A DNA stretch of 64,000 bases from Escherichia coli. Lineage in GTDB: Bacteria > Pseudomonadota > Gammaproteobacteria > Enterobacterales > Enterobacteriaceae. Under the pieces are notes generated by a model. That model was not told the DNA's origin. It saw only the letters and a program-made list of their open reading frames with translations, and made no database searches. Every line of letters begins with the position of its first letter. Position 1 is the stretch's first letter. The stretch lies in the NCBI RefSeq assembly GCF_048403405.1, contig NZ_CP183129.1. One strand, 5' to 3'. Positions 9,911 through 36,146 of this stretch are shown one piece after another. A program made the position numbers and the translations under genes.

Positions 9911-11080
9911 TTACTGGCGCTTATCCAGCGCGACAAACTGGCGGTCTTCCGGTCCAACATAATTGGCGGAAGGACGGATAATTTTGTTGTCCTGACGTTG
10001 TTCAATGATGTGCGCCGCCCAGCCGGTGACACGGGCGATGACAAACAGTGGTGTGAACATCTCGGTGGGAACGCCCATCATGTTGTAGGAAACAGCAGAG
10101 AACCAGTCGAGATTGGGGAACATCTTTTTGCTCTCCCACATCACCGTTTCCAGGCGATCGGCGATGTTGTACATCTTCAACGAGCCGCCTTCCTGCGAGA
10201 GCTGCTTCGCCACACGTTTGATCACCTGGTGGCGCGGGTCGGCGATGGTATAAACCGGATGCCCAAAACCAATGACCACTTCTTTGTTTTCCACCCGCTT
10301 ACGGATATCAGCTTCGGCTTCGTCCGGCGTTTCGTAGCGTTGCTGGATCTCCAGCGACACTTCATTCGCCCCGCCGTGTTTCGGCCCGCGCAGTGCGCCA
10401 ATCGCGCCAATAATCGCGGAATACATATCAGAGCCGGTGCCCGCAATCACCCGGCTGGTAAAGGTGGAGGCGTTAAACTCGTGTTCGGCGTACAGCACCA
10501 GCGAAATATGCATCGCCTTTTCCCAGCTTTGCGACGGCTTTTCGCCATGCAGCAGATGCAGGAAGTGACCGCCGATGGAGTCGTCATCGGTTTCCGGCTG
10601 GATGCGTTCGCCGTTGTGGCTGTAGTGATACCAGTAGAGAAGAATCGAGCTAAGTGACGCCAGCAGTTTGTCGGCAATATCCCGCGCACCAGAGACGGTA
10701 TGACCCTCTTTTTCTGGCAGCGTGCAGCCGAGCGCGGAAACGCCGGTGCGCATAACATCCATCGGGTGTGACGCCGCCGGTAAGGCTTCCAGCACGGTAC
10801 GCACGTTAGCCGGTAAACCGCGCAGGGCTTTCAGTTTCGTTTTGTAAGCGGCGAGTTCGTCACGGGTCGGCAGTTTGCCGTGGATCAGCAGATGCGCCAC
10901 TTCTTCAAATTCGCAATGTTCCGCCAGATCAAGAATATCGTAGCCACGGTAATGCAAGTCATTGCCACTTTTACCCACGGTGCAGAGCGCCGTATTGCCC
11001 GCCGGAACGCCAGAAAGCGCCACAGATTTTTTCGGTTTAATGACATGGGTACTGTTTTGCAGGATCGTTGTGTCGCTCAT
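9911..11080 (-). CDS. prpC: 2-methylcitrate synthase
   Basis: 389 aa citrate-synthase-family protein. Confidence 0.9.
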
Positions 11081-11124
11081 ATTGTCCTCGTCATTTGTAG
11101 GGTCGAGATATTTTTCGTTGTGTT

Positions 11125-12015
11125 TTATTTCGCCTGGCTACGGGCAAACAGGTCGTCGAGCTTCTCTTCGTACTGGTAGTAGTTGATGCTTTCGTACAGC
11201 TCGTTGCGGGTCTGCATGGTGTCGATGACGCTTTTCTGCGTCCCTTCCTGACGCAGGACGTTGTAGACATGCTCAGCGGCGCGGTTCATGGCGCGGAACG
11301 CTGAAAGTGGGTACAGCGCCATTGCGACATGGGCGCTGCGTAATTCGTCGGTGGTAAACAGCGGTGTTGCGCCAAATTCGGTGATGTTGGCGAGGATCGG
11401 CACCTGCACCGCATCGGCAAACTGGCGGTACATGGCGAGTTCGGTAATCGCCTCCGGGAACAACATCTCGGCACCCGCTTCAACATAGGCCTGCGCACGC
11501 TCAATCGCCGCATCCAGCCCCTCTACCGCCAGCGCATCGGTGCGCGCCATGATCACAAAATCAGGATCGGTTTTCGCATCCACCGCCGCGCGGATCCGAT
11601 CCACCATCTCCTCTTTCGAGACGATCGCCTTATTTGGGCGATGACCGCAGCGTTTCGCACCAACCTGATCTTCAATATGCAAACCCGCCGCACCGGCTTT
11701 AATCATCGATTTCACGGTGCGGGCAACGTTAAAAGCCGAAGAACCAAAACCGATATCCGCATCCACCAGCAGCGGCAGCGAACAGACGTCAGTGATACGG
11801 CGAATATCTGTCAGCACATCATCAAGGGTAGAAATACCGAGATCCGGCAGCCCCAGCGAACCTGCCGCCACGCCACCACCGGAGAGATAAATTGCCTGAT
11901 ATCCGGCACGCTGCGCCAGCAGCGCATGGTTAGCGTTGATGGTGCCGACAATCTGCAATGGATTTTCTTTAGTCAGTGCAGCGCGAAACGCTTTACCTGG
12001 AGAGTGTAGAGACAT
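11125..12015 (-). CDS. prpB: 2-methylisocitrate lyase
   Basis: 296 aa isocitrate lyase/PEP mutase family; ATG at 12013-12015. Confidence 0.9.
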
Positions 12016-12062
12016 AGCCCATCCTTTGTTATCAACTTGTTATTTGCGTTGATAAACACAAA

Positions 12063-12078
12063 GCAAGGGGTGTGCCAC
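12063..12078 (-). promoter_or_regulatory. sigma54 (-24/-12) promoter of prpBCDE
   Basis: Minus strand reads GTGGCAC-ACCCC-TTGC (TGGCAC-N5-TTGC) about 50-65 bp upstream of prpB; divergent prpR encodes a sigma54 activator. Confidence 0.65.
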
Positions 12079-12253
12079 AATTGCCTTAATAAAATTAAAT
12101 GTTTAATTTCAATTTGTTAGCAATATAGTCATGAAGTAATCCACAAATATGCGTTTCAGTTAACGTTTCAGGCAATGTTTCACCGCGTTTCATTGCAACA
12201 ATTATGAAACAAGACTAAACCCAATATTCGGTTTCTTAACTTTGCAGTGCGCT

Positions 12254-13840
12254 ATGGCACATCCACCACGGCTGAATGACGACAAACCGGTTATCTGGAC
12301 GGTATCTGTAACGCGCCTGTTCGAGCTGTTTCGCGATATCAGCCTCGAGTTTGATCATCTGGCGAACATTACCCCTATCCAGCTTGGCTTTGAAAAAGCG
12401 GTGACCTACATCCGCAAAAAACTGGCAAACGAACGCTGTGACGCCATCATCGCTGCTGGCTCTAACGGCGCGTACCTGAAAAGCCGCCTGTCAGTGCCAG
12501 TTATTTTGATTAAACCGAGCGGCTACGATGTGTTACAGGCACTGGCAAAAGCCGGAAAACTCACCTCTTCTATCGGCGTTGTGACTTATCAGGAAACTAT
12601 TCCGGCGCTAGTGGCGTTTCAAAAAACCTTTAATTTGCGCCTCGACCAACGTAGCTACATTACCGAAGAAGACGCGCGCGGGCAGATTAACGAGCTGAAA
12701 GCTAACGGCACCGAAGCGGTGGTCGGCGCGGGGCTGATTACCGATTTGGCAGAAGAAGCCGGAATGACCGGAATTTTTATCTATTCCGCCGCCACCGTGC
12801 GCCAGGCATTCAGCGATGCGCTGGATATGACGCGCATGTCGTTACGCCATAACACTCACGATGCCACCCGCAACGCCCTGCGTACTCGTTACGTGCTGGG
12901 CGATATGCTCGGTCAATCACCACAGATGGAACAGGTACGGCAGACTATTTTGCTGTATGCCCGCTCCAGTGCGGCGGTGTTGATTGAGGGGGAAACGGGG
13001 ACGGGCAAAGAGCTGGCGGCCCAGGCGATTCATCGGGAATATTTTGCCCGCCACGATGCGCGACAGGGCAAAAAGTCGCATCCGTTTGTTGCCGTCAACT
13101 GCGGGGCGATTGCCGAATCGCTGCTGGAAGCAGAGCTGTTTGGCTATGAGGAAGGGGCGTTCACCGGCTCGCGACGTGGAGGTCGCGCCGGGCTGTTCGA
13201 AATTGCCCACGGCGGTACGCTGTTTCTGGATGAGATTGGCGAAATGCCGCTACCTTTGCAGACTCGCCTGTTACGGGTGCTGGAAGAAAAAGAGGTCACC
13301 CGCGTCGGCGGGCATCAGCCTGTTCCGGTAGATGTGCGGGTCATTAGCGCCACTCACTGCAATCTGGAAGAAGATATGCGGCAAGGGCAGTTTCGCCGTG
13401 ATCTGTTTTATCGGCTGAGTATTTTGCGTCTGCAATTGCCACCACTGCGCGAGCGGGTGACGGATATTCTGCCGCTGGCGGAAAGCTTTTTGAAAGTGTC
13501 TCTGGCGGCGCTCTCCGCCCCGTTTTCTGCCGCATTACGCCAGGGATTACAGGCAAGCGAAACCGTGCTGGTGCACTACGACTGGCCGGGCAATATTCGT
13601 GAACTGCGCAATATGATGGAGCGACTGGCGCTGTTTTTAAGTGTGGAACCGACGCCGGATTTAACGCCGCAGTTTTTGCAGCTGCTACTGCCGGAGCTGG
13701 CGCGCGAGTCAGCGAAAATTCCCTCCCCATCCTTGCTGACACCACAACAGGCACTGGAGAAATTTAATGGCGATAAAACAGCAGCGGCGAATTATTTAGG
13801 TATCAGCCGGACGACGTTCTGGCGGCGGCTGAAAAGCTGA
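12254..13840 (+). CDS. prpR: Sigma54-dependent transcriptional activator of the prp operon
   Basis: ORF track 12242..13840 (TTG); ATG at 12254 gives [15 protein letters not shown]...; AAA+ motifs GETGTGKE and GAFTG, C-terminal HTH. Confidence 0.9.
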
Positions 13841-13940
13841 ACTGCCGAATGCAGCGCGAACGCTTTATCCGGCATAAATTTCAATAGATGATGATCACCG
13901 ATAAACTTACGCATCGGGGATGTTTACATAGGATTCAGAA

Positions 13941-14216
13941 TTACTTCTTCTTATAAATATTTGCCGTGCCGTGAATCTTATTGTCAGTTTGACCAGAGGT
14001 CAGCACCAACACATCAGCCCCTTTTTCATCGGCTTTTTTGATCAAATCTTCTTTCGCATCTGCGGTCGACATTTCATTACTGGTTGAAATATCACCTATT
14101 TTTTCATATTGCGATTCAACCTTTTCAAATTCCGCTTTGGTCATTAATTCTGCGGCATAGACATTGGTAACGGCAAACGCTAATGCACCGACTAACATTT
14201 TAGAGATTATTTTCAT
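13941..14216 (-). CDS. yahO: Small secreted protein of the YahO/DUF1471 family
   Basis: 91 aa; N-terminal signal peptide [21 protein letters not shown]. Confidence 0.8.
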
Positions 14217-36018: not shown

Positions 36019-36146
36019 CCAGTATCCCCACTGTTATTGTTACCATTTAAAATCAAATTCGTAACAATTAAGACACATTTTATATTGAACGTCCAATCAA
36101 TAACCGCTTTAATAGATAAACAACGCTGATGAATGGAGTGGCGAAA
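36019..36146. promoter_or_regulatory. Divergent betT / betIBA promoter-operator region
   Basis: 128 bp between divergent genes; BetI operator is expected here from established knowledge, not mapped. Confidence 0.45.

Follow-up and report, generated by a model that had tools for sequence, protein, structure and literature searches.

A predicted ArcA operator in the leader of the sigma54-dependent prpBCDE operon of Escherichia coli

The canonical sigma54 architecture, of the glnAp2 and nifH type, combines a -24/-12 promoter with an upstream enhancer and a site for integration host factor (IHF), and the same parts belong to the prp promoter, for which later work cites Palacios and Escalante-Semerena (2000). 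Operators of phosphorylated ArcA (ArcA-P) with several direct repeats (DR) have been characterised at icdA, lpdA, sdhC, mdh and fadE (Park et al. 2013, PMC3798270). Here we describe the divergent prpR/prpB intergenic region of Escherichia coli, in a window of 64,000 nucleotides from contig NZ_CP183129.1 (assembly GCF_048403405.1), where an 8-bp palindrome lies at the start of the prpBCDE operon. The promoter of this operon, PprpB, resembles the canonical type with GTTTCAT/ATGAAAC repeats approximately 100-160 bp upstream, a divergent gene (prpR) for the bacterial enhancer-binding protein (bEBP) and an IHF-like site at about -60. It differs from the textbook architecture in that an extra conserved operator-like element is found between +1 and the Shine-Dalgarno (SD) sequence.

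This element has several properties of the ArcA-P operators. The predicted prpB box shares with them a pair of TGTTA repeats at 11 bp and a weaker extra repeat, its 16 bits are within the range of bound boxes, and it overlaps the predicted start of an operon for an oxidative, respiration-dependent pathway. Sites with three repeats at 12 bp centre to centre form a class of their own among the sites bound in chromatin immunoprecipitation (ChIP) in Table S4 of Park et al. (2013), with lpdA and putP as members, while others have 10 bp; GTTGAT and TGATAA occur there as repeat variants. The ChIP-bound gadE box, TTGTTATCAGCTTGTAAA, is nearly identical to the prpB box. The characterised cases of ArcA occlusion differ from prpB in that they concern sigma70 promoters with ArcA over the -35 and -10 elements, whereas the prpB promoter is sigma54- and enhancer-dependent, its core box is at +9 to +26, and the box is predicted from sequence and has no ChIP peak. 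Park et al. (2013) also list ArcA sites at other operons with sigma54 promoters, namely four repeats at astC, which has a sigmaS promoter as well, and three at argT. These sites indicate that regulons under sigma54 and a bEBP can carry control by ArcA as an additional layer.

The palindrome is probably part of a conserved ArcA-P operator, predicted to extend from -7 to +26 of PprpB and to repress it.

Direct repeats in the prpB leader

The elements between the promoter and the start codon of prpB (ATG at 12015-12013, minus strand) are the following:

12063-12077, minus strand: sigma54 -24/-12 core promoter of prpBCDE, TGGCACACCCCTTGC; the second G is -24 and the C of GC is -12
12051, minus strand: predicted +1, 12 nt downstream of the C of GC; plausible range 12053-12050
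12048-12055, minus strand: palindrome left arm TTATCAAC; as GTTGATAA on the plus strand it makes up the candidate third ArcA repeat
12029-12036, minus strand: palindrome right arm GTTGATAA, inside the predicted ArcA box, where it covers the end of DR1 as well as the DR1-DR2 spacer
12026-12043, plus strand (antisense to prpB): predicted 18-bp ArcA box TTGTTATCAACTTGTTAT, 16.0 bits, +9 to +26 relative to the predicted +1
12026-12035, plus strand: ArcA direct repeat DR1 TTGTTATCAA, 9.6 bits with the single-repeat matrix
12037-12046, plus strand: ArcA direct repeat DR2 TTGTTATTTG, 8.1 bits, 11 bp from DR1
12049-12058, plus strand: candidate ArcA repeat DR3 TTGATAAACA, 5.4 bits, 12 bp from DR2, covering -7 to +3 and coinciding with the palindrome left arm
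12030-12042, plus strand: perfect match to the IHF core consensus WATCAANNNNTTR (TATCAACTTGTTA), overlapping the ArcA box at +10 to +22
12022-12026, minus strand: Shine-Dalgarno sequence AAGGA of prpB, from direct reading and alignment; its first A (12026) doubles as base 1 of the ArcA box

Read directly, the minus strand across promoter and leader is ...TTGTGGCACACCCCTTGCTTTGTGTTTATCAACGCAAATAACAAGTTGATAACAAAGGATGGGCTATG. Several E. coli chromosomes are 100% identical to the window at this locus and are annotated with prpR, prpB and prpC.

Scoring was done with an ArcA position weight matrix (PWM) built from the 115 ChIP-derived ArcA boxes in Table S3 of Park et al. (2013), which range from 9.6 to 21.5 bits with a median of 15.7 and a mean of about 15, and with a single-repeat PWM built from the sites in their Table S4. 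The predicted box consists of two TGTTA direct repeats 11 bp apart, centre to centre, and is the same as the right arm and loop of the palindrome read on the plus strand. It ranks second among about 128,000 positions in the window, and the two best matches are both in the prpR-prpB intergenic region. There are two positions in the window with at least 15 bits and seven with at least 12 bits. When the 47-nt leader was shuffled with dinucleotides preserved, 16.0 bits were reached in 4 of 2000 cases, and two boxes of at least 15 bits were seen in 1 of 2000 shuffles of the intergenic region. The third best match in the window, at 36061-36078 on the minus strand (ATGTGTCTTAATTGTTAC, 14.4 bits), is the ChIP-bound betT ArcA box of Table S3 in Park et al. 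(2013) and is an internal positive control.

The inverted repeat itself follows from the direct repeats: the palindrome exists because DR3 (GTTGATAA) is the reverse complement of the end of DR1 together with the DR1-DR2 spacer (TTATCAAC).

The best match to the ArcA PWM is at 12195-12212 on the minus strand (TTGTTTCATAATTGTTGC, 16.2 bits), on the inverted repeat of the PrpR enhancer and near prpR. A resembling match is kept at approximately -144 to -197 in Enterobacteriaceae, including Shimwellia. The match in the window may be a genuine site through which ArcA represses prpR, in line with the 2.9-fold rise of prpR in an arcA mutant, or competes with PrpR; it may also merely reflect that the PrpR half-site resembles a variant of the ArcA repeat.

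Conservation of the repeats and of the palindrome

Comparisons were made among 80 prpB loci, 63 from Enterobacterales and 17 from Betaproteobacteria, with Yersiniaceae, Erwiniaceae and Hafniaceae outside the set. The leaders of Enterobacterales recurrently have T(A/T)(A/T)CA direct repeats about 11 bp apart just before the SD sequence, which is TGTTA on the opposite strand. A leader box of at least 12 bits is present in 56 of the 63 Enterobacterales loci, approximately 29 nt before the prpB ATG and on the antisense strand, with a sequence that differs between loci. If the limit is set at 10 bits or more, 59 loci have a box, on the antisense strand in 58 of them and starting at -27 to -32 from the ATG in 50. 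The leader box is one of the four best matches of its locus of about 5.9 kb in 59 loci and the very best in 35. Four positions (G3, T5, T13 and G14) are invariant among the 25 distinct box sequences and the spacer varies. The 17 loci from Betaproteobacteria, which have the matching type of sigma54 promoter, reach 5.4 bits at most; the taxa sampled there are not known to have ArcA. In shuffles made for each lineage the counts were 0-13 of 2000 for Enterobacteriaceae and 1-87 of 2000 for Morganellaceae. A position and orientation that are kept while the sequence turns over, and this only in taxa with the regulator, are what is typically seen at functional sites of transcription factors.

Three repeats with exact 11/11-bp spacing are present in Photorhabdus, Xenorhabdus and Morganella, from just after the -12 element to the SD sequence, and in Photorhabdus and Morganella the repeats begin at about -8 relative to the predicted +1. 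Leaders of the Salmonella type have boxes of 16.8-19.3 bits at the corresponding position. Probing of metagenomes with the published -24/-12 18-mer of LT2 gave mostly unrelated matches, and a PrpB start followed in 4 of 120 loci; the boxes of these four contigs have 18.2-19.3 bits and are in the corresponding place. Shimwellia, with a leader that lacks an ArcA box, is the clear exception among Enterobacterales. DR3 is 11 bp away from DR2 in E. albertii, and in Citrobacter the distance is 10 bp.

The palindrome is less widespread than the repeats. It is absent from Salmonella, Photorhabdus, Xenorhabdus, Morganella and Providencia, and the direct repeats are kept in Salmonella and Morganellaceae. 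The spacer between the two arms, which are 100% complementary in the repeat search, is 11 nt in the window (GCAAATAACAA, 12047-12037 on the minus strand) and 10, 11 or 12 nt among 18 distinct leaders from Escherichia, Citrobacter and Kluyvera. The right arm is invariant in 17 of these 18 leaders and in all nine sampled E. coli alleles, where both core repeats are invariant as well, and the conserved part of the left arm is limited to the 6 bp ATCAAC (12053-12048). In E. coli N1193 this part is changed to ATTAAC, so that the antisense GTTGAT becomes GTTAAT, a better ArcA repeat, and the loop is changed too. A common loop variant in E. coli turns TTGTTAT in DR2 into TTGTTAC, likewise a preferred ArcA form. 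At position 12057 the window has G where seven of the other eight sampled E. coli alleles have C, and N1193 has a deletion of 1 nt there.

Different palindromes are found at the corresponding place in two genera (at about 2440-2500 in both loci). Shimwellia (L070), without a leader ArcA box, has the 7-bp palindrome TATTGCG-N14-CGCAATA, and Pseudocitrobacter (L022) has a 9-bp inverted repeat, TTTGTTGTT-N19-AACAACAAA, of inverted units that resemble the ArcA repeat. The left arm is at about -8 to -1 in both, upstream of the predicted +1.

Units of GTTTCAT/ATGAAAC occur 30-50 nt before the prpB ATG in Xenorhabdus and Photorhabdus (for example L027 and L038) and in Janthinobacterium (for example L044). 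In the former two the unit doubles as the second ArcA-type repeat, and in Janthinobacterium it is followed by a small hairpin that is conserved, TTCGGGACC(A/G)TCCGAA. Such a unit in the leader may indicate a PrpR half-site downstream of the promoter. Binding of PrpR to the E. coli leader was considered and rejected, as direct reading finds no GTTTCAT/ATGAAAC unit there.

The promoter, its upstream region and alternative explanations

The sigma54 promoter TGGCAC-N5-TTGC, which an earlier note on this DNA had placed at 12063-12078 on the minus strand, is indeed present and is one base shorter, with TGGCAC at 12077-12072, ACCCC as the N5 and TTGC at 12066-12063. It is the sole exact match within the window. 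Matches with one mismatch are as common as expected (6 observed, 6.35 expected), and the significance of the motif is therefore a matter of context and not of count. The motif is kept upstream of prpB in the 80 loci. It has the GG and GC doublets of a sigma54 promoter at the TGGCAC-N5-TTGC spacing, and the divergent bEBP gene prpR and the upstream enhancer repeats of the sigma54 architecture are also present. Bonocora et al. (2015) found a sigma54 ChIP-seq peak in E. coli (OS01) on GTGGCACACCCCTTGCT upstream of prpB, 17-fold above threshold, and the Salmonella orthologue of the promoter has a sigma54 signal in published ChIP-chip data. Expression of prpBCDE has been reported to depend on PrpR, 2-methylcitrate, sigma54, IHF and CRP, and the earlier note, which took the dependence on PrpR and sigma54 as established, was right to assign a sigma54 promoter. 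The predicted +1 at 12051 coincides with the start that Bonocora et al. (2015) predict 36 bp upstream of prpB, and is located in the left arm, so the palindrome does span it as had been proposed. According to the same authors the prpB promoter of E. coli is flagged 'Predicted' in EcoCyc and not mapped. No sigma70 promoter or terminator was found in the region.

Two further elements are found upstream of the promoter:

12187-12210, no strand assigned: PrpR enhancer-type inverted repeat GTTTCAT-N10-ATGAAAC, from the repeat search; overlapped by the best ArcA PWM match of the window
12107-12119, plus strand: IHF-like site with one mismatch, TTTCAATTTGTTA, at -68 to -56, the usual position for a bend between enhancer and promoter

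The enhancer repeat and further GAAAC repeats agree with the published PrpR enhancer consensus CGTTTCATGAAACG. A tandem 12-nt direct repeat, CGTTTCAGTTAA / CGTTTCAGGCAA, at 12152-12175 on the plus strand gives GAAACG units on the prpB-sense strand, which are probably additional PrpR enhancer half-sites. Kluyvera and two of three scanned Citrobacter loci have an equivalent IHF-like site with one mismatch at -79 to -66. In the tract that separates the IHF-like site of the window from its -24 element there is a perfect 8-bp inverted repeat of A and T only, AAATTAAA-N2-TTTAATTT at 12092-12109, which probably reflects a bendable A/T-rich spacer. A 17-nt inverted repeat with 76% complementarity connects the -12 region (CACACCCCTTGCTTTGT, 12058-12074) with the SD sequence and start codon (ACAAAGGATGGGCTATG, 12013-12029); only transcripts that read through from a start upstream of the sigma54 promoter would have their ribosome-binding site sequestered by this pairing. 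The prpR-prpB-prpC segment (window positions 11000-14000) has 9 of its 5240 matches on plasmids, and about 200 of 5426 complete E. coli genomes have no match.

The earlier note described TTATCAAC-N11-GTTGATAA at 12055-12029 as an 8-bp palindrome, which is confirmed as a perfect inverted repeat, and suggested that it might be a second operator or an RNA hairpin in the 5' leader. Perfect 8-bp inverted repeats with a loop of 3-15 nt were seen in 28 of 5000 dinucleotide-preserving shuffles of the 47-nt leader and are common in the window as a whole (56 observed, 15 expected); the palindrome is locally beyond chance. Stem-loops of the ompA type at the 5' end stabilise mRNAs in E. coli, and the arms might form such a 5'-terminal structure in the prpB mRNA, stabilising the transcript or tuning its translation. 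The isolated 27-nt palindrome folds at -6.2 kcal/mol (z -8.1), a loop of 10-12 nt is tolerable for RNA, the C-to-U change in N1193 keeps a G-U pair, and the fixed distance between the element and the SD sequence fits a role in RNA. If prpB transcription starts at 12053, exactly where the conserved part of the left arm begins, the result is a short hairpin at the very 5' end as in the ompA type, with a 6-bp stem from A12053 that folds at -3.9 kcal/mol. At the predicted +1 of 12051, which is not a mapped start, the two arms are not both fully transcribed: 4 nt of the left arm are left, giving a 4-bp stem and a leader z of +0.6, and no stem forms from 12050. In the context of the leader, none of four 5' ends gives a fold better than shuffles (z -1.3 to +1.4). 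The 18 leaders of the Escherichia, Citrobacter and Kluyvera set show no covarying pair, pairing at the two outermost positions is broken in 10 and 12 of them, changes within the inner 6 bp in two loci (L017 and L071) are uncompensated, and an Rfam search of the leader gave no match. The palindrome is also missing in Salmonella and Morganellaceae, and those of Pseudocitrobacter and Shimwellia have their left arms upstream of +1. In comparison with the ompA type the prpB stem is weak and AU-rich with an 11-nt loop, is half removed at the predicted +1, shows no covariation and is conserved in three genera only. An RNA hairpin or riboregulator was thus rejected as the main explanation, since foldings, Rfam and pair counts were all unsupportive, and we find it very unlikely. 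Another role in RNA would be that the repeated UAACA(A) 5' of the SD sequence is an unstructured A/C-rich translation enhancer or a site for Hfq or a small RNA, with the match to the ArcA PWM as a by-product. The constant orientation and the fixed distance of the proximal TAACA to the SD sequence and ATG in nearly all Enterobacterales, whatever the length of the leader, would agree with this. A generic A/U-rich enhancer would not yield an 11-nt periodic TGTTA at 12-20 bits (the top 0-4% of shuffles), ordinary leaders score lower since the whole window has seven positions of at least 12 bits, and no small RNA partner is known; this explanation has little chance of being correct.

The palindrome might also be the operator of another dimeric repressor, or of a regulator of the OmpR/PhoB family with a similar repeat such as PhoP, an idea that we regard as highly improbable. 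It has in its favour that the inverted repeat is perfect and locally non-random, that ATCAAC/GTTGAT is invariant in the clade with variable flanks, and that Shimwellia and Pseudocitrobacter have different palindromes at the corresponding place. The spacing of 10, 11 or 12 nt shifts both the distance and the helical phase of the half-sites, which is rarely tolerated, and a palindromic dimer operator was rejected because of this variable half-site spacing across orthologues. PrpR is the only regulator encoded beside the operon and its site (GTTTCATGAAAC) is different. TGTTAT is nearer to the ArcA repeat (TGTTAA) than to that of PhoP (TGTTTA), which counts against PhoP. The suggestion of a second operator was right in its direction, but the unit that is conserved consists of ArcA-type direct repeats, which are on the opposite strand, instead of a palindromic operator. 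IHF, finally, could bind at +10 to +22 and either modulate the activity of PprpB or, as its site overlaps the box, be a competitor of ArcA there. The match to the consensus at 12030-12042 is perfect, expression of prpBCDE genetically requires IHF, and the ATCAA core would explain the invariant spacer between DR1 and DR2 in Escherichia, Citrobacter and Kluyvera; competition from IHF could also explain the missing ArcA signal in ChIP, and it is a possibility that the overlapping core lets IHF and ArcA-P compete for the shared 20 bp. The consensus is weak alone (4 matches in the window, 3.2 expected), and the site is downstream of +1 and not between enhancer and promoter, where sites with one mismatch are found at the canonical -56 to -79. 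Strong IHF sites typically have an A/T-rich tract, and the 5' flank on the plus strand (CCCATCCTTTGT) is not of this kind. The perfect core is conserved only in Escherichia, Citrobacter and Kluyvera; it has been lost from S. diarizonae, Pseudocitrobacter, Photorhabdus and Providencia, and Morganella has a reduced match with one mismatch on the opposite strand, while the direct repeats are kept in all of these. IHF was therefore rejected as the main explanation, with no enrichment in the window and conservation in one clade only, and is kept as a minor and unlikely alternative.

A proposed redox control of PprpB by ArcA

In the proposed mechanism for the ArcA operator, DR1 and DR2 (TTGTTA at 12026 and 12037) and the weaker DR3 (TTGATA, 12049) would cover approximately -7 to +26. 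With a reduced quinone pool, in the absence of oxygen and nitrate, ArcB would phosphorylate ArcA, and ArcA-P would oligomerise on the repeats and block open-complex formation or promoter escape of the sigma54 holoenzyme despite the presence of PrpR and 2-methylcitrate. The respiration-dependent 2-methylcitrate cycle would therefore stay uninduced under fermentative conditions. Both the binding of ArcA-P to the box and the repression of PprpB through it are what we infer from the sequence. Whether the whole proposal holds appears evenly balanced to us, namely that ArcA-P, bound to an operator downstream of +1 and ahead of the ribosome-binding site, exerts a direct veto on a sigma54 promoter that depends on an enhancer, that this arrangement is conserved in Enterobacteriaceae and Morganellaceae, that it is the missing link for the need for a respiratory electron acceptor such as nitrate in anaerobic Salmonella and presumably in E. 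coli, and that it makes PprpB sensors and pPro vectors redox-sensitive in the anaerobic gut.

Published data touch on this in several ways. Park et al. (2013) report that prpR is up 2.9-fold in an arcA mutant and mention in one sentence that the intergenic region upstream of prpR, at an operon without a ChIP peak, contains an ArcA box with 15 bits or more. This box could be either of the two intergenic boxes (12026-12043 or 12195-12212) because no coordinates are given. The earlier note knew of no assignment for the palindrome, and apart from this sentence, which comes without coordinates or validation, that is nearly true. According to the same study most repressing ArcA sites overlap the region bound by RNA polymerase, and ArcA is often a second layer that blocks anaerobic induction. 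Among the changes listed for an fnr arcA double mutant is an increase of the PrpR regulon. The operon prpBCDE itself is unlisted, but those cultures were uninduced. In anaerobic Salmonella, propionate alone induces prpR, whereas prpB and prpC need nitrate too (Shelton et al. 2022); ArcA is unmentioned in that study. An ArcA operator at PprpB would account for this nitrate requirement, which is consistent with the proposal but indirect.

Several observations weigh against repression by ArcA. No ArcA ChIP peak is found near prp (about 347.5-348.0 kb) in the peak and filtered-peak tables of Park et al. (2013), made from anaerobic glucose cultures, although these authors treat the site upstream of prpR as possibly missed by ChIP; for anaerobic growth on glucose the outcome is nonetheless negative in vivo. 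The prp genes are absent from the ArcA target material of Federowicz 2014 (ArcA/Fnr ChIP-exo) and from a study of the Salmonella ArcA regulon with its supplement, and a comparative-genomics paper on ArcA, Fnr and NarP contains nothing on ArcA at prp. Because the published ChIP lists hold no prp peak or entry, the site is called predicted here and not an established member of the ArcA regulon. A limited supply of the co-activator 2-methylcitrate would be another way to account for the nitrate effect in Salmonella. The box is anchored to the start codon (-27 to -32) and not to the promoter, as the -12 element is between 41 and 89 nt away from the ATG; in Xenorhabdus, with its long leader, the core box is well downstream of +1 and promoter occlusion consequently fits less well. 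With 5.4 bits DR3 is a weak repeat in E. coli, and in relatives its spacing varies from 10 to 12 bp. The second repeat in Xenorhabdus and Photorhabdus is ATGAAAC, which is a PrpR half-site as well. Furthermore, the invariant spacer TCAAC in the E. coli clade is left unexplained by ArcA; its source may be the IHF core TATCAACTTGTTA, DR-like units of the opposite strand or, with +1 at 12053, a short 5' hairpin.

The box in the prpB leader would be a new, predicted member of a well-known class of ArcA operators, foreshadowed in the literature by the single sentence in Park et al. (2013), and the general picture of ArcA or sigma54 biology would be unchanged by it. If the prediction is true, it is a clear case of a response-regulator repressor that acts on a sigma54 promoter from downstream of the start. 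The PprpB/PrpR pair has been used in pPro expression vectors and in propionate biosensors meant for the anaerobic intestine, and their output under anaerobic conditions would be lowered by an ArcA operator in the leader, which could be removed by mutating two G residues. The 2-methylcitrate (propionate) pathway would join the direct ArcA regulon, and a mutable cis-element would explain why prpB and prpC need nitrate as well as propionate in anaerobic Salmonella, an observation that bears on propionate-mediated colonisation resistance in the gut.

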